A stretch of 61,494 nt of DNA, from contig NW_015160224.1 in assembly GCF_001447785.1 (NCBI RefSeq), positions 1,017,259 to 1,078,752 of the forward strand, read 5' to 3'. This stretch comes from Gekko japonicus (taxonomy: Eukaryota). Numbering within the stretch: position 1 is the first letter of the stretch; each line of letters begins with the position of its first letter. Made by a program: the position numbers and the translations under genes. Positions 2,677 to 33,690 of the stretch are shown in pieces. Below the pieces are notes generated by a model, which worked only from the letters and a program-made list of their open reading frames with translations, searched no databases and had not been told where the DNA came from.

Positions 2677-5600
2677 GTCAGACAGACTAACAGGCTGCCC
2701 ATCTTGGTGTTTGTAGATCAGGGGTCAAACAAGTGTGATAACACAGTACACGGGATCATGAAACAAACAAGCACTGCATAAATAACGCAGATCAAAGAGT
2801 GCCCGGGTAATATAAACAGCAGGAAAACACATCATGTAATGCACAAGTACATAGGTAGTACGGAACAGGTAGTACAAAGACGAAGACTCCGGATTTCAAT
2901 CTTCATTTCGCTTTTACTGAGTTTATGGAGGAAACCATTTCTTTTACCTGTGCTCTCCAGGCTGTCTCTCCGCTGTTTGCCTGATCCATTGCTTGCTGTC
3001 TTCATCATTCCACTTTATGCCACGTCATCGTTTTATTCCGCTTAATTGCTTTTCAGTGTTAATTTATGGTGTATTAAATTTTTTTGGAAAACCTCTCTGG
3101 AAAAATATTTTTCCCCCACAGGGTGAGATATAAATTTAAAGAAATGGAGCCCTCATGGTGTACCTCTGAAGGAAGCCCAGTTGTGGGGAGAAGGCTGCTC
3201 CATGTCCTGGCTGTGGACGCCTCTGCCTCCCCCCCCCCCCCGGCCGGGGTTTTCGGTTTAAAAGGCCTTTGGGGGTCTGATCCAGTGATGCTCTTCCCGC
3301 TGCCAATGCCAACTTTTGTCCTACATTACCCTTGACTGCCCGAGGTCCGTTTGTTTATAAAAATCTTCCTGGTTCTGGAAGAAACTCAGACTTGGGTCTC
3401 AGAGGCTCTCTGGAGTCTGAGGTCGCTCTCTGGAGTCAGGAGGTCGCTACCAAGAATCATATTTCTGAACTCACCCCGTCATTCACAGAACCAGCTGGCA
3501 CGCACTGACAGCCCCCACGGGCAAAGGTCGGAGCAATCTGAGCCTTAAAAACCGAAGTTTGGCCCCTCAAACGCTACTTCATTTGCCCGCACCCAAATGC
3601 TACTTCACCGCCCGCGCTGACTCGTTGAGCTGCTGGTGGGTCTCTGGTCCCCCCCCCTCCCTTGCACACTCTGGGGGTGTCTGTGGGGTGCAGCTTTCCT
3701 TTGTTTTTTAAAGAAGGGAAGACAGTCCTCCAATTGTCCCGTGCTTCCCTGTGTGCCAGCACTTGGAAACAGACCGCAGCCTCCATGGGCCCCTGGTGGA
3801 TTTCCATGATAAACGCCCTGATCTCGACAGATAATGCAGCCCAGCCCTGCTCTTGTCAACTCTGCCTTTTATTGCTGTTTGATTAATTACTTTACAATTT
3901 TGCCATCCAGCTGTGGGGGTTTGGTGGAGGTTGTGCATGCACTGCTGTGCCTCCATCAGGCTGAAGAATGGAAGGCGCCTGTTGAGTGACTCTCGTGGAC
4001 GGGTGCCATGTGCTGAGCGGGTGACCTTGTTTGCCAAAAGGGGGCAAGGAGCATCTCCTGGCGCTGGCTGGCATTGCGCTTGCCTCCACCGCAGGGCTTC
4101 CCGGGGCCCAGGAGGGGAAGGGCTCTTGCAAGTACTAGAGAGTGGGTGGCAGTGCGCAAACGCTGCTCCCGCTGTTGTCTCCATGTTCGTTTTTTTTGTA
4201 GTACTTCCCAAACCTGCAAAACTTGTTTTGACCAGTGGCAACAAAAGAAAAGAGTTCTCGCACCCCAGGAAACGTGCTTCTTTTGTATCTTTCGGACAAA
4301 GCCGTAGCCTGTTTGCAAGCAAAGCCATGACTCAGGAGTGAGGATTTACTTATAATTGGGGGGGCGGGGGAGGCGAGATCACACAACCACCTTCTGTACA
4401 AATCTTGTTTAAAAATTAAATTGGCGCAGAGGTACACTAGCAGCAATTCTCGAGCAAATAGCTATTTATCAGTTCCCTCCTCTTGTTCCTGGAGGAAGCG
4501 GCTGGCCGGCCTTTAGAATCTTCCTGAATGCCTCTCAGAGGGCAAAGGTCCCTCCCATCAAGGCCTTTGCTCCAAGGCCAAGGGACGGGGGACTGGGCTT
4601 TTCCAGGGCCAGGGGGAGAGAGGATGACTTGCCCCTCACGGTCCTTACAGAGCGCCTTATTGACTGCAAAGAGGTTCATGATTGACACCTTGCCGGCAAT
4701 GCATTTCAGATTCGAGACCGATCCATTGCTTCCATTTTCAGTGTAAATAAGACTGGAATAATTATTACTAGTGGTGTGATGATTTTTAAAATAGCAGTTC
4801 GAACTGCAGAATATGACCTGGTATTTATTCAGCAGCTTTTCACGGGTATGACATTGTTTTCAGTTATATCACTACATTGTTTTTGTAGTTAAGAAGGTGC
4901 TGTGAGAAGGTGGGGGAGGGGATTTATAAAAATCCCCATTCCATCCCCAAGGACCCCCCCCCATGGTGCAGGATGTTCACGGGGGGGTGGGGAGGGAGCA
5001 GGCTGACTTGGTTGCTTTACCTTTCTTTCATCCTTTGACTCTTAGCCGCTCTCAGTGTACTGTGCCTTTCCGGGACATGCTGTGTACTCACCAGACTGGG
5101 TGTGCCCCCCCCCCTTTCATTTAATTTACAGTGTGTCATTTTTTAGCATATCTGGGGAATGCCCCAAGTAGTTAGACTTCCAGTGGTGTCTGTTTTGACC
5201 TGATTTTTTTAATTTCCCAATTGTCCTGGCGGCCTACCCCACCTGACTACTAGATATGGTGATAAACCAAATAGTCCATAGTTGTGTGTTACGGCATGTT
5301 GTGTAACATTTCAGGAAAACAGTCTTCAATGCTGAAAGTACTTAAAATATATATCTGAATTGTTTTGTTTGTTGATGTGAAGACAGCTGCAAAATAATAT
5401 AATCCTGGGGGGGGTTGGAACAGGTAAAGCTCTGTATAAATTCTGCCTCATCATTTGTGTTAAGGTGTAATGAATCAGCTTATTTTTCTCCCCTTTCCCA
5501 CCATATCTCCCCCCCCCCATATCTGAGACCCAACAAAGGGTCATGGCTTACAGGGTTCTACTTGGGGGACCTGGATGCAAGTCCCCATTTGGGTCGTCAG

Positions 5601-8288: not shown

Positions 8289-8623
8289 GCGACCACTGAG
8301 TTAGTTGCGTCCTGCTTTGCTCCCCAGTGGAAGGGCAGCCTTGGTCTCTCTGTGCCAGGCCAGGAGGCCTTTGCCCTCCCACTCGCTCAGGTCTTAAAGG
8401 GTTACCTGCAAGAAAGGGGCCGAGGCTGAACTTCCAGGCCGCTGGCGGTTCCAGTCCCTTCCTTTCCAAGCCTTCCTGACCTCTGCTTGGAAGGCCCCCG
8501 GCACCTGTAAATCCTCCTCCTACAAACAGTGATCGACTGAGTGTCACATAAAGCCAATGACCAAAGCAGCCAACCTCTCCCTCCCTCTCTTCTCCCTGCC
8601 CCCCTTCATCTCCTCTTCCATAG

Positions 8624-8784
8624 GCGGCGAGAACATCAAGAGCATAAACCAACAGTCCGGAGCCCACGTGGAGCTTCAGAGGAACCCGCCTCCCAACACG
8701 GACCCCAATGTGCGGATATTCACCATTCGAGGAGTCCCCCAGCAGATCGAGCTTGCCAGACATCTCATAGATGAGAAAGTTGGC
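8624..8784 (+). CDS. FUBP3: FUBP3 exon: KH domain (GKGG loop) completion
   Basis: Pyrimidine tract + tag|...|gtgagt; encodes [53 protein letters not shown]; phases compatible. Confidence 0.97.
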
Positions 8785-9087
8785 GTGAGTACAGCGCAGG
8801 GCGCTCATGTTTCTCGACCCCCCACCCACTTTTGGAGAGCACCCCCCCCCCCCCGCGAGGGCCTATCTGCGCGAGGTCATATCTGCTTGCCGGACTAGAT
8901 GCTGGGGGGAACAAAGGTGGGAGGAACGCCACCGAAGGATGTGGGCTGGGGGGGGGCCCACCGCCGTTCCCATTGTATCGTGCTTGTGGTAATCGAAAAA
9001 AGTAAATTGCTTTTGTACAAAAAAAAAGAAAAGACGTCGAGACCCTTTGGACAGCACCCTATAAGCCTCCTTTCTCTCTTTTGACAG

Positions 9088-9158
9088 GGTACTAGCCTGG
9101 GGGGCCCTGGAGGCTTTGGGCAGAACCCCTTCAGCCAGCCACCTGCCACTCATCAAAA
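9088..9158 (+). CDS. FUBP3: FUBP3 exon
   Basis: ttttgacag|...|gtaagc; encodes GTSLGGPGGFGQNPFSQPPATHQ(N). Confidence 0.93.
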
Positions 9159-10123
9159 GTAAGCTTCCTCGTTTGCCCCTCATACCCCTCGAATGCAGTT
9201 TCACACACACACACCCTGCGATGTCTTGTTTGCATCAGCCTCTTTGCAGAGCGTCCTTGTTGTGCGAGGCGGCTCGCAGTGTAACAGATAAGTTGAGCAG
9301 TACCTGTCTTGGAAGAGGGCACAATCCAGAATTTCGTGTGAGCAACCATGGGAAGGGGGAGAGGAGTCGGGCCAGCGGAGGAAGAACGTGCGTTCCGTTC
9401 ATCGATTCAGCAAGCTTAGTGTTGGGAGTGAATCTCCGGGAGGAAGAGAAAGCCTTGCCCTCAGTCCTGGGACCCTTTGCCCAGAGGTGCTGGCGACTTA
9501 TGCTGTGGTTTCCTGAATGCAGAGTGGGTGGTTCCTCCCATGCCCGTGGGCATGATGCACCTGGCCCCTTCTGTTAGGGACATATAAAGCCCCTTTTATA
9601 CCCCTGGTCTGTCTCGCTCAGTGTTGCCTGCTCTGACTGGCAGCTGCTGAAGGAGAGAAGGGGCATCCCTCGTGCTTTGCTACCTGAGCGCCTGAATGGA
9701 ACCTGGGTCCTTCTGCATACGGAGCATGCCGTCCAGGATCCTGAGTCAGTGCATCCAGCTTGGTCATTGTCCACTCCGAGGGGCAGCAGCCTGTCAAGGC
9801 TCAGAGGCAGAACTTCTCCAGCCCCTGTTGCTGGGGGTCCTTTAACTGGAGAGGCCGGGGGCTGGACCTGGGACAACTTTCTGCACGAAGGGCCACAGAG
9901 CACTGCCCCTCTCCTAGTATGTAGGCTTAGTTCTGGCAGTAGATGGGTATAAGGGGCTGATGTGGAAGGGGGAGGGGAAAATGTGAAGATGGGCAGAGAG
10001 AGGGCATCAGACAGATGTTCCAGGAGGGCGTTTTAGGCATAAGGGGACAGCAAGGGAGAGGTGTGGAGCCACTTCAGAAAGCAGAAGAGTTTCAGACATC
10101 TGAGGCCGGCAGAGCTGAAGGGA

Positions 10124-10430
10124 TAGAATCATAGAATGTTAGAGCTGGAAGGAACCTTGCAGGTCATCTAGTCCAACCCCCTGCACTCTGCAGGAGCATA
10201 GCCGAAAGAGAGCCCTACAACATTCCCGAAAGATGGCCGTCCAGCCTCCGCTTGACAACGTCCAACGAAGGAGCATCCACCAACTCCCGAGGCAGTCTGT
10301 TACACTGCTCAACCACTCTTACAGTTAGGAAGTTTCTCCTGATATTTAGCCGGTATCAACTCCCTTGTAATTTCCACCCATTAGATCTAGTCTTGCAATC
10401 CGGAGCAAGAGAGAATAGAACTGCTCCATG
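10124..10430 (-). mobile_element. CR1 LINE 3' fragment
   Basis: ATAGAATCATAGAATG...GGTCATCTAGTCCAACCCC, the CR1 3' octamer-repeat terminus in reverse. Confidence 0.75.
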
Positions 10431-12814: not shown

Positions 12815-13475
12815 GCCCAGGGCTGCTTGGTCTTGCAGAAGGTCGCAGGATCAATCCTGGCATCTCCAGTTAAAAACATCAGATAGGAGGTGATGTGATA
12901 TGAAAGACCTCTGCTTAAGACCCTGAAGAGCCGCTGCCAGTCTGAGTAGACCAGGGACAGCCAAACTTGCTTTTAACATAAGAGCCACATGAAATAAATG
13001 TCGAGATGTTTGAGAGCCACAAGATGTGAACAAATATTACACACACATTTTTATTGGAAAATACACACATTTGCCTTTTATTAACATTAAATGAGAGACT
13101 GCCAAAAATAAAAACAAAAGGGGTTAAAAGCAGATATTGATCATTATATTTATTTGTCGAATGATATTTATTTGTCAGAGAGAGAGAGTGCAAATAGATG
13201 GGGGAGGGAGAGAAAGAAAGATGAAAAGAAAGAATTTAAAGTTAAAGTTGCTTTCTTTCTCTGTCCCCCCCCCCAGCCAACGCAGGGAGGGGAACACAGA
13301 TCGGGGAGGCATGCCTCCCCTCCCCTTCTCCAGCCACCCTGCCAGGAGCCACACAATTTATACAAAAGAGCCACATGCGGTTCCCGAGCCACAGTTTGGC
13401 CACCCCTGGAGTAGACAGCCCTGACCTCGATGGAGTCCCAGGGGTCTGATTCAGTATTAAGGCAGCTTCATGTAT
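12815..13475 (+). mobile_element. tRNA-head SINE with CR1-like 3' end, split by a MITE
   Basis: Same family as 42645 and 58350; sequence resumes in register after 13416. Confidence 0.7.
12952..13408. mobile_element. hAT (Charlie-like) MITE
   Basis: Termini CAGGGACAGCCAAACT / AGTTTGGCCACCCCTG; perfect 8-bp TSD GAGTAGAC at 12944-12951 and 13409-13416. Confidence 0.9.
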
Positions 13476-13812: not shown

Positions 13813-13889
13813 TGGTCCTCAGGCGTTCATGACGCAGAGTTGGGGCGGCACTTACCAGCCGTGGCAGCAGCCCGGACAGCAGGTTCCAA
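13813..13889 (+). CDS. FUBP3: FUBP3 exon
   Basis: tcctccacag|...|gtaagt; encodes GPQAFMTQSWGGTYQPWQQPGQQVP. Confidence 0.94.
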
Positions 13890-16800
13890 GTAAGTGTCTC
13901 GGGATTACAGGACGGGGGGGGAGGCAGTGGGCTGTGGAGTAGCGACCGAATTGGGACGCGGTGAAGCAGAAGTCCTTTGTTCCCTGCAGCACGTGGAATC
14001 TATTGCTGCAGGATGCCGTGGTGGCTGCCCCAAGACAAACGGGACAGCCAGCTAGTCAGAGTGTGATTGGACAGATAAATGGAGGTTGGGCCCATCGGTG
14101 GCTAGCTGCATGGGAAACTCTGTGTTCAGATGCAGCCTACCTCCGCAGCAGATGCTGGGGAGAGCTGTCGTAATCTTTGTGGCCGCCTTGCAAGATTCCA
14201 CTAACATTTGACCACTGAGTGTTAAAGAGTGCCGGAATTCAAGACTTTGTCTTCAGATTGCAGATTTGGGGAGTAGACGGTTGGGTTTCGGGACACCCCC
14301 TTGTCCCTGTAAAACTCCCTACATTTTTGTGTCTGTGCGCTCCAAGATTCCCAGTGTCCTGTTTTCACTACGTGGTGCGAGTATTATCAGACAGGATAAC
14401 CTCGCCTGAAGTGGTATAGCCCTGTGGCATGGCCCGCATGCTGCCAAATGCGTGAGAGTCTGGTCTGATTCAGATGCTGAGAGCTGGAGGTAGGGGAAGG
14501 GGCGTAGCTGAACGGCTGCAGGGGTGCCTCTGATGCGGAGGGCAGGAGAGGGGCTCCCTTCTTCCTGGGGCTACTGATATACATGGGCTCGGTCTTGAGA
14601 AGGGGACGTGTGAGCCACCACCACGTGGCTGCCTTGGAGACAGGAAGGAAATAAGGCCGCACTGAGAGGTAGGGGGGTAAAGAGGCACAAGGTGCAAGGG
14701 AGAGCAGTTTATTTGGCTTTCTAGATCCCAGCATGTTTTGTGTTAAGCTCCGTCAGGGGATCTAATAAAACAAAAGTTAAAATAGATGCAATTACGTCAA
14801 TATATGTAAACACCAGTATTATATCATTTAAGACGTATAAGTTAATTTTAAAAAATTAAGATTTATTTTTTTTAAAAATGAATTTGGGAACCATGCGGAG
14901 CATGGCGTAGGGAACCCAACATATTCTCTGTTGTGCTACAAATAACGTCTGAGCGGTTTATTGCCTGAAGCCTTTTTATATAAACTGAAAAAGATGCATT
15001 CAGGGTGGCCATTAACACAAGGGCCCTCTCAGACCAGGCTGGCAGTGTGGCATCCCTCAAGCAGAAGCTTCTCTGGCTCCTGCCTTGAAACAGACGGGTC
15101 AGTTGGGTAGAGCTCAGGATGGTTTGTAGCCAGGTGCGGTGGAGGAAATCCAAGTTCCCATTTAACCCTCCAAGGTTGGGCCGTGGCCTCTCTGTGGTGC
15201 AAACAGAGCGCAAGATGCTGGCTCCGGGGGTAATGGCTGCCCTTGCGTGGTGGTGCTCCATGGGCCATCTCAGTGACTCTTGGGCCCTGCTGGGAAGGAG
15301 GCCCCTATAGTGGCCAGACTGGAGCTGAAGCCCGAGGAGCGCTCTGGAGTGGGCAAGCGGGCACCCAGAGCTCCTCGGTATGCCGCTTCTCTGCTTCTCC
15401 TTGCTCCTCAAGACACAGTTCAGGTGTCAACGTGTAAAAGCCTTTCCTGGCATCTTTCTTCCCTGTCGCCGCTGCTTGTGTGCTGCCTTCTGCTTGCAGA
15501 GGCCCCTCTGCTCCCCTGCCCTCTAACCGCCCGGTGAGGCTTCAGGCAAGCGCCAAGGGCCACCGGGCTTCCGGCCCTTCTCTCCCTTCCTTCTGCTGCT
15601 GGCTTCTTCCGCTTACCTGCGGGGGTGGGGAGAGGAGCAGGTCTTCTTGTCTGCGCAAGTGTGGAAGTTGGGAGCCCTGCCCACAAGAGCCGAGGTCACA
15701 CGGGTCTCCCACTTCCGTAGGTGCCCCTTGCTACGCTGCTGTTGTAGCAAGTCTCGGCCGTTTGCCGGATGGGCAGGCTGCCCCCACTGACGTGTGTACC
15801 ACGAGGCAAATCCAAAATGGAGATTAGATTGGAAGGCGGTGCTTCTTTAAAAAGAACACCAGGGCGAATTCCAGCGGAGCGGTACATCTATTGATGGCTG
15901 TTAACCGTGATTGCAAAGTAGAACTTAGATTTAAAAGGAATTAGATTTAAAAAAAACACCAGGGCGAATTCCTGATGGCTGTTAACCGTGATTGCAAAGT
16001 AGAACTTCCATGCACAGGGGCAGTATATCTCTGGGTAACAGGGAGGGGGGAGGCCTTCATCTCCTGCTCGTGGCATTTCAGCAGACACCTGGCTGTGCAC
16101 TGTTGGGCAGACCCGACAGGGCTGCGAGAGACGGCTGTGCTCCAGCACAGCGGTCCTTCCAAGCTTTCCAGACCTGGAACAACCCCCCCCCCCCCGAGTT
16201 GTGGGCAGAGGCCCTGTGACATCAGAGTCATGTGACAGAAAAGGAGGCGAAGTCACGACTGGGGTCTGCCATTCAAAAAGCGCCATTTCAATTCCATACC
16301 TGAAAGTTGGGAAGGGCACAGCTATAGTTCCGATTAAACATCGAGAATATCGTTACCCTTCCAGAAAATCACGTATGGGGAAATTTCCATTTTTATAAGC
16401 ATCAGTGTAGTGAACATGGTCGCCGTGCCCTTTCTGCTGGGCCTGTCCTCCTGCGGGCAAGGAGAGGCAGGGGGTGCACATCCTTGCTCTCTGGGTCACC
16501 CAGAGCGCCGCCCCCCCNNNNNNNNNNNNNGGACCTGCTCTAGTTTGCGATGCCCTTGGCCAGACAGGGCCTCTGCTCTCCGGTGTGACTCTGTTGGGGA
16601 CTGAAGGAAGGGAGCGCCCTTCTGAGCCTCCATCAGGCCTGGCGGTGCCAGGCTTCTGCTTTCTGTGGGCTGAAGCTGGTTCAGGGAGGCTTACAGAAAG
16701 GATTAAAACACATAGGTAACAGTTAAAACAGTCAACTCACAATTCTTATGTTAGTAGCAGGATCGGGGAATCAAAACCTTCTGACACTCCACTAGCCTCA

Positions 16801-17093
16801 CTATCCCTAAATAACCTTTTTTTAACAAAAAACAAACAAAAGCTTTTCTTGGCACACTTGTGAGTGGTGCAGACGGCCTTGAGGAAATGCAACTGGCAGC
16901 CAGTGACATCAGAACGGGGCGAATTTTGGCTCAGATCTCGATTTTTGTCTCTGGCTGTCCTGATGATGGGAGGGGGGGCTGGTTTGTTCCCTGCTCCCTC
17001 GGCATCCTCTTGGCTGAACCCGGTTGGCGGTTGTGGGGCGGAGGGATGCTTGCTTCCAGTGGGGTTCACGGGTTTCTTCTCCTCCTGCTGCAG

Positions 17094-17162
17094 ATCACAA
17101 TGGCACCCAGTCAGGCCAGGTGGAGTTTACCAAAGCATGGGAGGATTATTATAAGAAACTAG
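17094..17162 (+). CDS. FUBP3: FUBP3 extra, probably alternative, 69-nt exon encoding an additional YM repeat
   Basis: ttcttctcctcctgctgcag|...|gtaaat; phase 1-1; encodes (N)HNGTQSGQVEFTKAWEDYYKKL(G). Confidence 0.85.
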   Translation: MTMAPSQARWSLPKHGRIIIRN

Positions 17163-17179
17163 GTAAATAACCTACAAAA

Positions 17180-17492
17180 CTCCTCACGGCCTAGTTCTTT
17201 TTTCCCTATTCACTCACTTTATTTTTAATCACAAACACCCCACCCCCATCAGTCTCCATTTCATACAGCTCGAGATTTTTGCTCTCCTTCAGCACTTCCG
17301 CCTTCCATTGTGTCGTGTAACCTAGGGCACTGTGTGCACGCTCTACAATTCAACAAGGGCACAAGAAAACCTGCATGAACATGGTGCTTGACCTTGCTGT
17401 TCTGCTTCCTGGGTTTGGTTATAAAATCAAGAGCCCGTTTCTAGCCCTTTTTGGCTGCAGTTATATCCTTGAAAACCCGTGAGCAGTGCATG
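17180..17492 (+). promoter_or_regulatory. Putative intronic splicing enhancer: YCAY cluster plus two UGCAUG
   Basis: 8 YCAY in 17184-17264; TGCATG at 17372-17377 and 17487-17492. Confidence 0.5.
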
Positions 17493-18799
17493 CTGGGGGC
17501 TAGGCTCCCAAGGACTGCAGATAGTTCCCTGTCCTCCCCGTGACTAGTACATTCCAAGTGAAATGTTAAAAATAGCGTCTTAACAGTGCAAGAGGAAAGC
17601 AACCTGGCTTAATTGCTTCACTGACACAAGGCCACAAGCTTGTTGTGACACTTGTGATCTTCAGAAAAGAAAAAAGCCCAAACCAATGAGTATGCGCAAA
17701 CCTGTGTGTAACGGAGCTGGATTTCCCTTGCAAGTCGTGCACACAGGAATGCAGTCGTGTGTTTGGGTTGTGCTCCCGGGCTGTTCACTTTTCTCGCCCT
17801 TCCTGCAGAACTTGTCCTTCTCCCAAGTCGTTTCAGGACCCATCCTCTTGCCGTTTTGAACGTGGAGAGAGAGGAGCAGTCTGTTCACGCCTGTAAACCC
17901 CCCCCAAGCCCCCCCTCCACATGTCCTCTTAGTTTTTAATTACTTCCCACCTCCAATAAATTAGCCAGCCCCCGGGGTGAAAACACTTTGCCTTGAGACA
18001 CATTTTTTCCAGCGTGGCCTCTCGACCTGCCCGTAGTCTGTGATTCTGCTTGGAAGAAAAGGCGTTGAAGGGGGCCTTTGTTGGCATTAGCGGGGGTGGG
18101 GTTTGCCATGCTGGCCCTGACCCCTGGCCAGGCAAGTTGCTGACTTCCAGCTTCGGTGGAGCCTTTTAAGTGCCCCCAGTGCCTCCCCCTGCCAGGCCTC
18201 CACCACCGCCCCTTCAGAAGGCTCTTCTCCTTCGTGGGTTTCCTGCTTCATGTGCCCCCCCTTTCCTTACCCCCCTTTCCTTAAATGCATGCTGCTTTCC
18301 TCGTGGTGTGCGTGCATTTTCATTTGTTTGCCATTGTTGGGGGGGGGCTTTAGAGGAGATCTTTGAAGTTCGTGCTGTTGTCTTGGGGGATGGGGAGCAT
18401 CTAGTTCTCACGGATCCCAGCTCAGGGGGAAAAGGAGGCCTCCCGTCAACTGTAACCTGAAAATCAGGAAGCAGTCCCCCCACTACCACAGCTTCCTTCT
18501 CCCCCACCCCAATCAGGAAAGATGCCTGCAGCAGTCTCAATTCAGAGATCATTGCAAATGATGTCAGATGTTCTCTAAAGAGCCCAGTCTTGGTTTCTGA
18601 GCCAGTCACTGGCATGGCTCACGTGGTTCCAATGTAACAACAGCCCTGCATTTGGCTTTTCGTAACAAGACAGAGTCTGGAGAATTGTTGGATCCCCCAT
18701 CTTCCCCTTGTGCACAGCTTGAACTCAGCCCTTGTGCTTTCTGAGCAAGCGAGTGTTCTCTCACAATCTACAGGCTGCAGCCTCTTCTCTTCCCTCCCA

Positions 18800-19255
18800 G
18801 CCAGGCTTAAACCAGCGCCCCCTCTCCCATTTGACCAAGAATTTGCCTTGGCTATTTTGCTCCTGGGTTGAATTCAAAGTGTTGGTTCTGACCTTTAAAA
18901 GCCTTCTGTGGTCTGGGCTCAGGGTATCTGAAGGCCTGCCTGCTCCCATGTAAACCTACCTGGTTACTGTTCGAATCATCTGAAGCCCTATCCCACATTG
19001 CATCAGTACCTGAAATAAGGTGGGTGATCATGCAAAGCAGGGCTTTTTCCGTGGTGGCACCTCAGTTATGGAACATGCATCCCACATTCAGCCGGTGCCA
19101 AGTCTACAGAGTCCTAGGCACAAACTGCAGAAGGTCTTTCTTTATCCAGGCTTTCTGTTCGTGTTGAAATGTGATCTTAATACGCGATTGTCTGTATTTT
19201 TTAATTGTCTATAAGCTGCCTTGAGCAGTTCTGGCGGGAGGGGCTGGATAGAAAA
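18800..19255 (+). mobile_element. L2 LINE 3' fragment
   Basis: Degenerate W..EFKVLVLTFKSL motif followed by an L2-type 3' end. Confidence 0.65.
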
Positions 19256-19496
19256 GTCTGAAGGGAAATGGCCTGTGCTGTGGAGTCCCCAGTCTGGAGA
19301 GAGGAGCACCGAAGGTCGTTTGGATTCAGGCAAAGAGAGAAGTGCAGAAGTGCTTGGATTTTTTTGAGCCACGCATGAGGGATGGGGGGGCATCGGTTGG
19401 GGCCTCTGCTCGCCTACCCTGCAGTGCTGTGGGTCATTGGGTGAGAGGCGGTGTCCCGCCCCTGATGGCCGTCGGCCCTGTGTTGTCTTTGTGCAG

Positions 19497-19568
19497 GTCA
19501 ACAGACCCAGCAGCAGAACAGCCAGCCAGATTACAGCAAGGCATGGGAGGATTATTACAAGAAACAGA
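19497..19568 (+). CDS. FUBP3: FUBP3 exon: YM repeat
   Basis: ctttgtgcag|...|gtgagt; encodes QQTQQQNSQPDYSKAWEDYYKKQ(S). Confidence 0.95.
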
Positions 19569-20304
19569 GTGAGTGGCACTGGGCTGTGCGGGGGTGGGGG
19601 GGGTGGAGCATGCAGAGACTGGGCGTCCTGGACCGTGGAGTGGCGGGCTGGTGCCTCGGAGGGGCAGGTCTCCAGTTTCTGTCCCTCCCTTTGTTTGCTC
19701 CAAAAAGGGTTCATCCAGGTTTCATAACTTCAGAATACTTGCTTCTTGCTTGCCCCTCAAGTACTTGAAATGTTTGACAGTTCCTTCTTCAGCCCCGGGG
19801 GTTGATACCAGGGCAGTGGGAGCCACGCTAAAAGGCACGAGGTACCACGGACCAGCCCTCAAGTAGGGTAGAGCAGTGGGGCACACACTGGGCCCCGTAA
19901 GTCGGAAGCTATGAGCCATCCAGCGTGGAGGGGGAGAATCACAGTGTGGGGTGGAAGCAGGCCTGACCTTCGGAGACAGGCAGCTCCATCTTGCTGCTAC
20001 CGAGGGTCTCTGTGAATCAGTCTCATTCCACAGAGCAGTTCTGGTTGCAGAATGCCCTCCCACCTACAGCGCTGGTGGAGCCGGGGTGTGTGTGTGTTCT
20101 GAAGCTCCTCTCCCCCCTTCAGCTTCTTGATATAGCGGGTCTCCTTGTGTCCCTCTGTCCGTTAGACAGCCCCTGCCTCTGTGCTGGCTTTTTCCTGGCC
20201 AAGGCTCAGCGCTGCCGGCTGAATACTTCAGCCATGGCCACGGGATGTGGAACTGCTGCCGGTCGTTGGCGTTCCGATCAGTCTACATTTGTTTGCTGCC
20301 CTTG

Positions 20305-20520
20305 TCTTTACCCCGCCTTCCTCTCCCGTGGGGGGGCCCCCAGGGGGCACTTACACCACCCTGCTCTCCTCCGTTTTGTCTTCGGAACGACCCCGTGGCT
20401 CGGGCTAGGCTGAGAAAACGTGACTGGCCCACGGTCACTCAGCCGGCTTCCATGGCACAAGTGGGGATGAAAACTTGGGTCTCCCAAGTCCTGCTCCAGC
20501 CCTCTGACCACTGCACCCCG
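20305..20520 (-). mobile_element. Old CORE/MIR-like SINE
   Basis: GGCTGAGAAAACGTGACTGGCCCACGGTCACTCAGCC CORE-like segment. Confidence 0.6.
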
Positions 20521-20786
20521 CTGTCTCTTCCGCACAGCGAAGCGTGTCCCCTGCCCCAAGCAAGCCATGCCTGAGGCCGAGTCTCCTCCCTCCCAGCCTG
20601 CCTGCTCGCAACAAGCCGCCAAGGGGGCATCCGGGGCCCACAGCCATCCCCGGAGCTCACCGGGGCTTAACCCCCCCCACTCACACGGATCGTGGCCAGG
20701 CGCTATGCCTGGGCTGGGCGTGGGCTGGCTACCGGTGTCCCGGCTTCCTCTCCTGCTGACGGTGTGCATTTCTCCTTCCCTTCCAG

Positions 20787-20914
20787 GTCACGCTGCTACT
20801 GCCGCTTCTCAAGCAAGCTCCCAGCCAGACTACACGATGGCCTGGGCAGAGTATTACAGACAGCAAGCGGCTTATTACGGGCAGACACTAGGGCAGGCTC
20901 AGGCCCACGGCCAG
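20787..20914 (+). CDS. FUBP3: FUBP3 exon: last YM repeat
   Basis: ccttcccttccag|...|gtgggt; encodes HAATAASQASSQPDYTMAWAEYYRQQAAYYGQTLGQAQAHGQ. Confidence 0.96.
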
Positions 20915-21699: not shown

Positions 21700-21907
21700 C
21701 AATGTTCCCTCTAAGCTGCGGAATCTTGTGAGCCAGAAATTCTACTTTGTGAGCTCCTGGCATTAAAGCTGTGAGCGAGCGATTGGGCTCCTGCATAAAT
21801 TAGCCTGCTCTGGAGCCATCCTTCCTGAGCAAAGACAAAAATGAGTGAGCTGGCGGCTAAATAACTGTGAGCTAGGCTCACACTAACTCAGCTTAGAGGG
21901 AACACTG
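21700..21907. mobile_element. hAT-type MITE, family A
   Basis: CAATGTTCCCTCTAAGCTG...CAGCTTAGAGGGAACACTG; TSD ctcatggg/ctcacagg. Confidence 0.85.
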
Positions 21908-22559
21908 CTCACAGGAGCCTTTTTAGTAGCCATCCTCACAGACCCCACACGACTGTATCCCGGCCTGCAGTGCTGAAATGGCGGGATTGGTAGGGCACTG
22001 TCCTTGACAGGACCGGTCTGTGTGGGGTCATCCATTCATGACGGTTGGGGTGTCACCTCTTGTCCCGTCAGTCCTCCAGTAGGACCATCTTCTGCGGGGT
22101 TCCAGGCCTGCTGAGGTCATCCTGGAGAAAACGGTGGCGGGGGGGGGGGAGCAGTGCAGACTCTCCACAGAGCCATGAGGTCTTTCAGTAGCTTAAGGCC
22201 ACTAAAGCAAAATGGGACTTCTGTGTACGCAACGGCAACATATCTCCAGGCACCAAATGCCCAGAGACACAGGATGGCTGTGTGACCACGGTTGGAAGCA
22301 AAGCAGAAGGCTAACCCTTGGGCCAGATCCAGAAAGGAGCTCTCGTTATCTAAGCACTTTCCAAATGATAAAAAGGGAAGCCCAGCCCTCATCCTCACTT
22401 GCCCCCTCCCCTTTTTTAAAAAAGCACGCCTGTGGGAAGTCACACCACTCCATGTTTCAGCGGGTGGCTGTGTTGGACTGCCGTAGAACAGCTAAGCTGA
22501 TTCCAGAAGCGGTTGGGGGGGGGTAAGCTTCCGAGAGGCAAAGCTTCCTTCGTCTCTGA

Positions 22560-22815
22560 CGTGGGAGATTGAACCTGGGGCGTTCTGCACGCCACGCATG
22601 CACTCTGCCACTGAGCCATGGCTCCTCACAGGAAGCTGCCTTCGACTGAATCAGACCCTGGGTCCATCGAAGTCAGTATCACCCACTTAGATTGGCACCG
22701 GCTCTCCCGGGTCTTTCACATCACCTCCTGCCAGATCTTTTTAACTAGAAGAGCCAGGGATCGAACCTGGGACATTCCGTATGGAAAGCAGATGCTACAC
22801 CACTGAGCTACGGAC
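22560..22815 (-). mobile_element. tRNA/CR1-tail SINE, one head fragment plus one near-full copy
   Basis: Reverse complement of the 42645/58350 family. Confidence 0.7.
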
Positions 22816-24289: not shown

Positions 24290-24298
24290 GAGCAGTAG
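24290..24298 (+). CDS. FUBP3: FUBP3 terminal coding segment (EQ-stop)
   Basis: Long pyrimidine tract ttcctctttcttgcag|GAG CAG TAG, giving the recalled FUBP3 C-terminus ...QEQ*. Confidence 0.92.
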   Translation, partial: EQ

Positions 24299-31420: not shown

Positions 31421-33280
31421 TTAAGAACATAAGAGATGCCAATGTTGGATCTGGCCAAAGGCCCATCCAGTCCAACACTCTGTTACACAGTGGCCAAAAA
31501 TACCAGGTGCCATCAGGAGGTCCACCAGTGGGACCAGGACATTAGAAGCCCTCCCACTGTTGACCCCCCCAAGCACCAAGAAGACAGAGCATCACTTGCC
31601 CCAGAGCCCCAGAGCTAATAGCCACAGTGAATTCCATGTGTTAATCACTCTTTGGGTGAAGAAGGACTTCCTTTTATCTGTTCCAACCTGACTGCTCAGC
31701 AATTTCATGGAGTGCCCACGAGTTCTTGTCTTGTGAGAAACGGAGAAAAGTACCTCTTTCTCAACCTGCTCTATCCCATGCATAATCTTATAAACCTCGA
31801 TCATGTCACCCCTCAGTCGTCGTTTCTCCAAGCTAAAGAGCCCTAAGCGCTTTAACCTTTCCTCATAGGGAAAGGGTTCCAACCCTTTTATCATTCCAAC
31901 CCTTTTCTGCACTTTTTCCAAAGCTATACTATCCTTTTTAAGGTGTGGTGACCAGAACTGCACACAGTATTCCAAATGAGGTTGCACCATTGATTTATAT
32001 AGGGGCATTATGATATTGGCTGATCTGTTTTCAATACCCTTCCTAATAATCCCCAGCATAGCATTGGCCTTCTTTATTGCAGTCACATACTGTCTTGACA
32101 TTTTCAGTGAGTTATCTACTACTACTCCAAGATCTCTCTCTTGTCCAGTCTCTGCCAGTTCAGACCCCATCAACGTGTATTTATATTTAGGGTTTTTGGC
32201 TCCAATGTGCATCACCTTGCACTTNNNNNNNNNNNNNNNNNNNNNNNNNNNNNNNNNNNNNNNNNNNNNNNNNNNNNNNNNNNNNNNNNNNNNNNNNNNN
32301 NNNNNNNNNNNNNNNNNNNNNNNNNNNNNNNNNNNNNNNNNNNNNNNNNNNNNNNNNNNNNNNNNNNNNNNNNNNNNNNNNNNNNNNNNNNNNNNNNNNN
32401 NNNNNNNNNNNNNNNNNNNNNNNNNNNNNNNNNNNNNNNNNNNNNNNNNNNNNNNNNNNNNNNNNNNNNNNNNNNNNNNNNNNNNNNNNNNNNNNNNNNN
32501 NNNNNNNNNNNNNNNNNNNNNNNNNNNNNNNNNNNNNNNNNNNNNNNNNNNNNNNNNNNNNNNNNNNNNNNNNNNNNNNNNNNNNNNNNNNNNNNNNNNN
32601 NNNNNNNNNNNNNNNNNNNNNNNNNNNNNNNNNNNNNNNNNNNNNNNNNNNNNNNNNNNNNNNNNNNNNNNNNNNNNNNNNNNNNNNNNNNNNNNNNNNN
32701 NNNNNNNNNNNNNNNNNNNNNNNNNNNNNNNNNNNNNNNNNNNNNNNNNNNNNNNNNNNNNNNNNNNNNNNTTGCCAAGCCCGGACTGTTTAAAAAGGAG
32801 CCTGTTGCTCTGTTGTTTGTCTCCTTCTGGTTCTTCTGACTTTGTGTTCAATAAAGCTGTTATCACTGTTCACCTGCTGCCTCGAGTCTCGTATCTAACA
32901 GTTTTGTTCATCTATGTTCCTACTAATTCTTTCCTTAATAATGGTTTCCACCAATTTACCCGGTATCGATGTCAGACTGACTGGCCTGTAATTTCCCGGA
33001 TCTCCTCTGGAACCCTTTTTAAAGATGGGAGTGACATTTGCTACCTTCCAGTCCTCAGGAATGGAGGCAGATTTTAAGGAAAGATTACGTATTTTTGTCA
33101 GGAGATCCACAAGTTCACATTTGAGTTCTTTCAGAACTCTCGGATGTATGCCATCTGGGCCTGGTGATTTATCAGTTTTTAAGTTGTCTAACAGTTTTAG
33201 GACCTCCTCTCTCGTCACCTCAATCTGACTCAGGTCTTTCAACACCCCTCCCGAACTCAGCAGTTCTGGAGTGGGCAAGC
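31421..33280 (-). mobile_element. CR1 LINE, 5'-truncated, with ORF2/RT remnants
   Basis: DKSPGPDGIHPRVLKEL...DWKVANVTPIFKKG...NYRPVSLTS and KCKVMHIG...LEYCVQFWSP...EKRRLRGDMIEVYKIM; TAAGAACATAAG 3' end; spans an N gap. Confidence 0.93.
32772..32900 (+). mobile_element. 3' part of an LTR inserted in the CR1
   Basis: TTTAAAA box, AATAAA and terminal ...CTAACA; CR1 coding sequence resumes at 32901. Confidence 0.55.
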
Positions 33281-33690
33281 TGCCCGCTTTGACCTAAAGA
33301 AAGTCTTTGACCTAAAGAAAGTGTCAGTGTTGTGCTGTGATTAGAGGCTGGATTTGGAAGATGGCACGGTAAGGTAGGGGAGTATTACTGCTGACAGGAG
33401 GAAGAGGGAGAATGGCATGCCTAAGGCCACCAAGTGAATCAGTGGCAGAGGCTGGCTCCTTCTTCGTAGCTCTTAGCCCCTTGGGTGCATCAGCATCCAG
33501 GCCCCGAGACTGCTTCGTTGCATTTGAAACCATCAGTCACTGTGTCACTTGCTGCAATTTTTTTACTAACTCTACATACAGAACACACTGTCTCATTCTG
33601 GGGATTCCAGCAGCCCAAAGCCACCCGTGCCAGCCAAAAGATGTGCCCGACCATTCTATCCTCTGCTGCAGAAGGTCTATCAGTGGGCCT

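Follow-up and report, generated by a model that had tools for sequence, protein, structure and literature searches.

Alternative splicing of a tyrosine-rich repeat exon in gecko FUBP3 and its distribution among vertebrate protein models

FUBP3 exons in the window and the cassette exon

We analysed a stretch of 61,494 nucleotides of the Gekko japonicus genome, referred to here as the window, which carries exons of FUBP3. Residues 344-584 of gecko FUBP3 isoform X1 (P0018, XP_015266996.1) were placed on the window by tblastn, and the gecko X1 homologue P0013 contained four KH_1 stretches and FUBP_C above the cut-off, identifying the gene as a FUBP3 orthologue. The exons and splice sites were assigned as follows.

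8622..9158, plus strand: two upstream FUBP3 exons, 8622-8784 (KH4 region) and 9088-9158, from tblastn with isoform X1 and contig joints
13813..13889, plus strand: upstream FUBP3 exon, donor spliced to either 17094 or 19497
17073..17093, plus strand: acceptor of the cassette exon, polypyrimidine tract and CAG, from the sequence and RNA joint 13889>17094
17094..17162, plus strand: cassette exon (repeat A), 69 nt, phase 1-1, adding 23 residues with one tyrosine-diad (YM / FUBP_C) repeat
17163..17168, plus strand: donor GTAAAT of the cassette exon, from the sequence and RNA joint 17160>19495 (cut +2)
19497..19568, plus strand: repeat B exon, 72 nt, phase 1-1, skipped in other species' models
20787..20914, plus strand: repeat C exon, from the pattern, RNA joints and tblastn
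24290..24298, plus strand: first bases of the last, stop-containing exon, joint 20911>24287 (cut +3)

The exon before the cassette stops at 13889, after the first base of a codon, and the exon after it begins at 19497; the cassette exon is therefore phase 1-1 and causes no frameshift whether it is used or skipped. The exon is an open frame with no stop, and the spliced products with and without 17094-17162 were both stop-free with the frame kept. A preliminary description of this DNA had proposed the acceptor, the GTAAAT donor, the phase, the 69 nt length and the open frame, and all of these held, with RNA reads placing the ends of the exon exactly at 17094 and 17162. It had also proposed that the exon encodes a third YM repeat. 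A degenerate repeat-core pattern matched the window only at 17132 and 19538 (0.00 matches expected, none in 100 shuffles), and the third repeat of FUBP3 lies at 20840. Taken alone the exon gave a weak match to FUBP_C of 14.8 bits (E = 0.02), below the whole-protein cut-off of 20.1. The proposed likeness to the next exon was borne out at the 3' ends, where 33 of the last 45 nt were identical.

The cassette exon donor, earlier described as weak, scored 3.9 bits on a rough weight matrix. This is not distinctive, as five other FUBP3 donors scored 5.9, 5.5, 4.1, 2.6 and 0.0 bits and the donor of the repeat B exon fell below that of the cassette exon on the same matrix. A weak donor as the cause of skipping was unsupported by this rough score.

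The exon and its skipping are already annotated in RefSeq, in the gecko and in many other species. When the four exons of 13813-20914 were joined, the cassette exon among them, the 115-residue product was an exact substring of G. japonicus isoform X1, and the same join without it gave a 92-residue product that was an exact substring of G. japonicus isoform X4 (P0043). The same exon in the same frame is carried by the X1 models of Heteronotia, Chelonia, Trachemys, platypus and echidna and by chicken X2. The exon had been described as missed by the open reading frame track, which is a prokaryote-style track; RefSeq has the exon, and little of its novelty therefore survives. The RefSeq records examined are predicted models and do not include inclusion levels or regulation. 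No publication on the exon, its regulation or its loss was found among literature listings and the starts of abstracts, a scope that excluded subscription papers and splicing databases. There was no FUBP or KHSRP match in the two files searched from the PMC4494069 supplements, and the passages seen of PMC13376808, PMC12084880, PMC13292931 and 10.1101/247601 held nothing on FUBP3 isoforms. Being annotated, the exon adds no new gene part, and what may be of use is the comparison across species. The picture of a switchable repeat that is ancestral and not found in therian or amphibian models may be new.

Inclusion and skipping in RNA

Splicing was assessed in raw RNA-Seq data from three runs of one study, of which 3-12% of each run was read; the runs carried no tissue labels and the counts are small. 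The upstream inclusion joint 13889>17094 was covered by 15, 11 and 10 reads in the three runs, the downstream inclusion joint 17162>19497 by 20, 5 and 9 reads and the skip joint 13889>19497 by 5, 15 and 4 reads, all with GT..AG ends. The three joints by which the preliminary description could be checked were therefore all present, and its claim of a switchable exon held in three of three runs. Mean inclusion was 0.78, 0.35 and 0.70 (about 35-78%), and inclusion was unequal among these unlabelled runs (chi-square p = 0.0007 for the downstream junction and 0.049 for the upstream junction). We also examined contigs that join exons from datasets X1, X8, X16 and X17, which are RNA by guess only. 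In the contigs of dataset X1 (not to be confused with isoform X1) the downstream inclusion joint had a depth of 51.7 versus 151.8 for the skip, and contigs of X8, X17 and X16 contained the skip only; contig assembly drops rare forms. Together these data demonstrate that 17094-17162 is a real, alternatively spliced cassette exon of FUBP3.

Low RNA read and contig cover was seen over the introns around the cassette exon (window 14100-19400), with none at 19624-20376 in the raw runs. This low cover may reflect slow splicing or partial intron retention. Very deep read pile-ups at 10100-10400, 12900-13460, 21700-21910 and 22550-22750 of the window came from interspersed repeats abundant in the RNA runs.

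Sequence motifs downstream of the donor were evaluated post hoc. YCAY is a Nova-type motif and TGCATG an Rbfox-type motif, and such motifs downstream of an exon promote its inclusion through Nova and Rbfox. Two groups were present.

17184..17264, plus strand: cluster of 8 YCAY, candidate intronic enhancer, just 3' of the cassette donor
17372..17492, plus strand: two TGCATG (17372 and 17487), candidate enhancers, within 400 nt of the donor

The first 100 nt past the donor contained 7 YCAY. At least as many were present in 0.36% of 5888 100-nt windows, and the counts were 0-4 in six other FUBP3 introns and 0-1 in four paralogue introns. Mononucleotide shuffles of the same 100 nt reached 7 YCAY in 11% of cases (p = 0.11), and by this measure the excess was not significant. 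At least two TGCATG were held by 1.5% of 400-nt windows. An excerpt of one report describes Nova and Rbfox factors as promoting mature neural splicing and acting on a reporter exon (10.1101/247601). Nova/Rbfox-type control of FUBP3 exon inclusion is possibly at work and is taken here as a lead only.

Origin of the repeat and its distribution among vertebrates

The gecko genome (2.49 Gb in 191,500 contigs) was searched with the exon, and two further loci were found, which from family sequence features we take to be FUBP1-like (L003/L006) and KHSRP-like (L004/L007). Both loci had the repeat order upstream-A-B-C. Repeat A in gecko FUBP1 and KHSRP had a K-K-L/M-G ending and was followed by a phase-1 donor, placed at the codon where FUBP3 has its own. 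Repeat B of both loci had a K-K-Q ending, likewise followed by a phase-1 donor. The A-B-C order, with both A and B followed by a donor of phase 1, was thus common to all three gecko paralogues. The paralogues also differ, as gecko KHSRP carries repeat A at the end of a long exon that holds the further upstream repeat as well, and that upstream repeat was found in gecko FUBP1 and KHSRP and not in FUBP3 by pattern search. A shark protein named FUBP1 had repeats A, B and C. The shared order, ending and donor phase together with the shark protein suggest that the cassette exon most likely predates the split of FUBP1, KHSRP and FUBP3. The earlier proposal of an ancestral family exon agrees with the matching repeat, donor position and phase of the two gecko paralogues and with the presence of the exon in fish and coelacanth FUBP3.

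A recent tandem duplication of the next exon, or a chance look-alike within an intron, could produce the likeness over 33 of 45 nt. The amino acid identities would also allow it, as over 18 residues FUBP3 repeat A matched repeat A of FUBP1 and KHSRP at 12 positions each and FUBP3 repeat B at 11. By sequence comparison, identity over these 18 residues alone fails to separate A from B, and position, ending and exon border do separate them. Both forms of this explanation are very improbable and are refuted by the spliced reads, by orthologous peptides in coelacanth and ray-finned fish and by the same position, ending and donor phase at the exon border in both paralogues. At the KHSRP-like locus L007:3900-5100 (G000:C13549) the repeat B and C exons appeared twice, 616 nt apart and nearly identical (motifs at 4068/4297 and 4684/4913), owing either to an error of assembly or to a genuine tandem duplication.

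The distribution of repeat A was determined in the best 120 of 595 matches, ranked by a repeat-containing query, with up to 15 members of each cluster. We sorted 340 of the 353 proteins by clade using their source names and set aside 13 (the query peptide, 9 unnamed records, 2 short fragments and the shark FUBP1). Each count below is of proteins reaching the tail among the matches listed; isoforms are not independent, and absence from a protein model is not absence from DNA.

Geckos: 4 of 8 models
Other lizards: 1 of 16, a skink
Snakes: 0 of 15
Turtles: 15 of 20
Crocodilians: 2 of 4
Galloanserae: 3 of 10
Neoaves: 0 of 35
Monotremes: 5 of 7
Therians: 0 of 104 (marsupials 0 of 10, placentals 0 of 94)
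Amphibians: 0 of 59 (caecilians 0 of 14, salamanders 0 of 8, frogs 0 of 37)
Coelacanth: 5 of 9
Ray-finned fish: 18 of 18 score-ranked, and 23 of 29 cluster members (24 by eye, the pattern having missed P0320)

Many therian, amphibian and snake records labelled X1 were without repeat A, and X1 of platypus, echidna, turtles and two geckos contained it. Birds with the exon by model were galliform (chicken X2). Fragments with the repeat among shorter therian, amphibian and neoavian proteins came to three candidates only and were uninformative. Four unnamed records (P0005, P0007, P0279 and P0282) were genomic open frames that contain the exon with read-through intron flanks. The flanks of P0007 and P0282 resemble those of P0279, whose exon variant matches chicken, suggesting that more birds may keep the exon than the models show.

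The exon peptide was identical to that of the gecko at 23 of 23 residues in turtle and crocodilian, 22 of 23 in skink and chicken, 19 of 23 in monotremes, 17 of 23 in coelacanth and 12-15 of 23 in four ray-finned fish. It was better kept than repeat B (21/23) in non-avian reptiles. These identities point to purifying selection on the exon where it is retained. In the salmonid models P0060, P0073, P0078, P0083 and P0297-P0310 repeat A was often degenerate, with another residue in place of one tyrosine and a proline inside the helix, a possible case of decay in progress. As eel, loach, arowana and coelacanth have skip-form models, skipping was probably possible already in bony fish. The exon did not arise in the gecko, and the human two-repeat FUBP3 is the derived state. 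The exon had been called extra, which applies relative to human only. The protein models suggest that therians and amphibians have fixed the skipped form.

Repeat number also varied through repeat B. Among birds, turtles, marsupials, placentals, amphibians and coelacanth there are models that skip the repeat B exon (19497-19568) and are left with one repeat, and a 548-aa FUBP3 form without repeat B is common to human (named isoform X1, P0204) and other catarrhines. Skipping in so many models suggests that FUBP3 in general varies in the number of its repeats. No repeat B skip was seen in the gecko among the six joints listed for the raw runs or among the contig joints listed.

Possible roles of the additional repeat

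All nine gecko repeat units matched Pfam FUBP_C (PF09005) and the core A-W-x-x-Y-Y was invariant in all nine. In excerpts of the literature, three tyrosine-rich motifs of FUBP1 are needed for activation and TFIIH is recruited (PMC11338137), and for Drosophila Psi a single Y motif activates a reporter, both repeats are strongest and their deletion abolishes activation (PMC5027480). We consider it somewhat probable that an ancient, frame-preserving cassette exon switches the FUBP3 tail between three and two YM repeats and that inclusion raises multivalent binding to the transcription machinery and activating strength. Inclusion would give three tyrosine-diad repeats and skipping two. The added repeat would contribute one amphipathic binding helix, and the tail would make more multivalent contact with the transcription machinery, resulting in stronger activation. 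TFIIH, Mediator or U1 snRNP proteins are candidate partners, and inclusion may be tissue-regulated, possibly by factors of the Nova/Rbfox type acting on the intron that follows. A gain in activator strength on inclusion is our extrapolation from these reports, and the tuning of activation-domain valency through TFIIH that the preliminary description proposed is likewise a hypothesis. Human FBP3 is named as the strongest activator of the family in an excerpt of PMC2631590, and with primate models that are without repeat A this suggests that repeat count does not simply set potency. Also against the activation model, repeat A is missing from the models of five groups (therians, amphibians, Neoaves, snakes and nearly all non-gecko lizards) and, judged from these models, is dispensable in many lineages.

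A known parallel is the set of hnRNP GY-rich cassette exons in mammals, which Gueroussov and colleagues reportedly showed in 2017 to tune the multivalency of the tails of RNA-binding proteins. Those exons are likewise frame-preserving and change the count of tyrosine-bearing motifs in a low-complexity tail. The FUBP3 exon is unlike them in that it appears to have been skippable already in fish and is missing from therian models, whereas the hnRNP exons are newly skippable in mammals. A broader scenario is possible but doubtful, in which the exon serves the activation tail of FUBP3 as a tissue-regulated switch of valency with a Nova/Rbfox-type enhancer, goes back to early jawed vertebrates and disappeared independently in at least two lineages (therians and amphibians) and perhaps in up to five (with Neoaves, snakes and lacertids). 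If true, human FUBP3 would be a fixed short form of a protein that most vertebrates could toggle between one, two and three repeats.

The FUBP family literature is divided between transcription and RNA processing, as stated in an excerpt of PMC5027480, and the extra repeat could act in splicing, where it would offer U1 snRNP or other proteins of the early spliceosome a further place to bind, like the AB domain of Drosophila PSI. Excerpts of two reports fit this role, one stating that the PSI AB domain is required for U1 snRNP interaction (PMC6890465) and the other that FUBP1 mediates U1 snRNP interactions (PMC11079029, citing Ebersberger 2023). A profile of the nine gecko repeat units found one PDB sequence, the PSI chain 2bn5_A/2bn6 (E = 0.006). 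We take 2bn5/2bn6 to be the complex of PSI with a U1-70K peptide. The aromatic core of the PSI AB domain, whose repeats are needed for both activation and U1 snRNP binding, is homologous in sequence to the gecko repeats, but the match spans 11 residues only. No PDB match at E up to 10 was obtained with the exon peptide alone, and full-length P0013 gave KH-domain-type matches and no tail match among the best 60 of 79. The partner peptide of PSI is proline-rich and human U1-70K has a proline-rich stretch, but where the last two coding exons of gecko SNRNP70 meet (L011:2830-4454, G000:C1170) no such stretch was found. HepG2 eCLIP, in an excerpt of PMC12533644, also places FUBP3 mainly on 3' UTRs, and we regard the splicing role as unlikely but as a serious alternative. 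About as unlikely is a redundant repeat heading for loss, with partial skipping as unregulated drift of no functional effect. Neutral loss would explain the absence of repeat A from therian, amphibian, Neoaves, snake and lacertid models and the skipping of repeat B in many models, including the 548-aa form of human and other catarrhines. However, a decaying exon would not be expected to keep full peptide identity between gecko, turtle and crocodilian and 19 of 23 residues in monotremes, and inclusion differs among runs.

FUBP proteins differ in YM repeat number. Cells of gecko, turtle, chicken or fish naturally provide pairs of FUBP3 isoforms with a difference of exactly one repeat, in which the effect of repeat number on activation strength or spliceosome contact could be cleanly separated. 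The comparative picture is not surprising and concerns specialists in FUBP and in the evolution of splicing.

Two minor observations were made along with these searches. A second SNRNP70 copy in the gecko genome (L014, G000:C7880:229400-232500) was intron-poor and broken by a stop, an insertion and a frame change and is likely a processed pseudogene. The window also contains an open frame at 32898-33293 on the minus strand that resembles a fragment of a CR1-type LINE reverse transcriptase.
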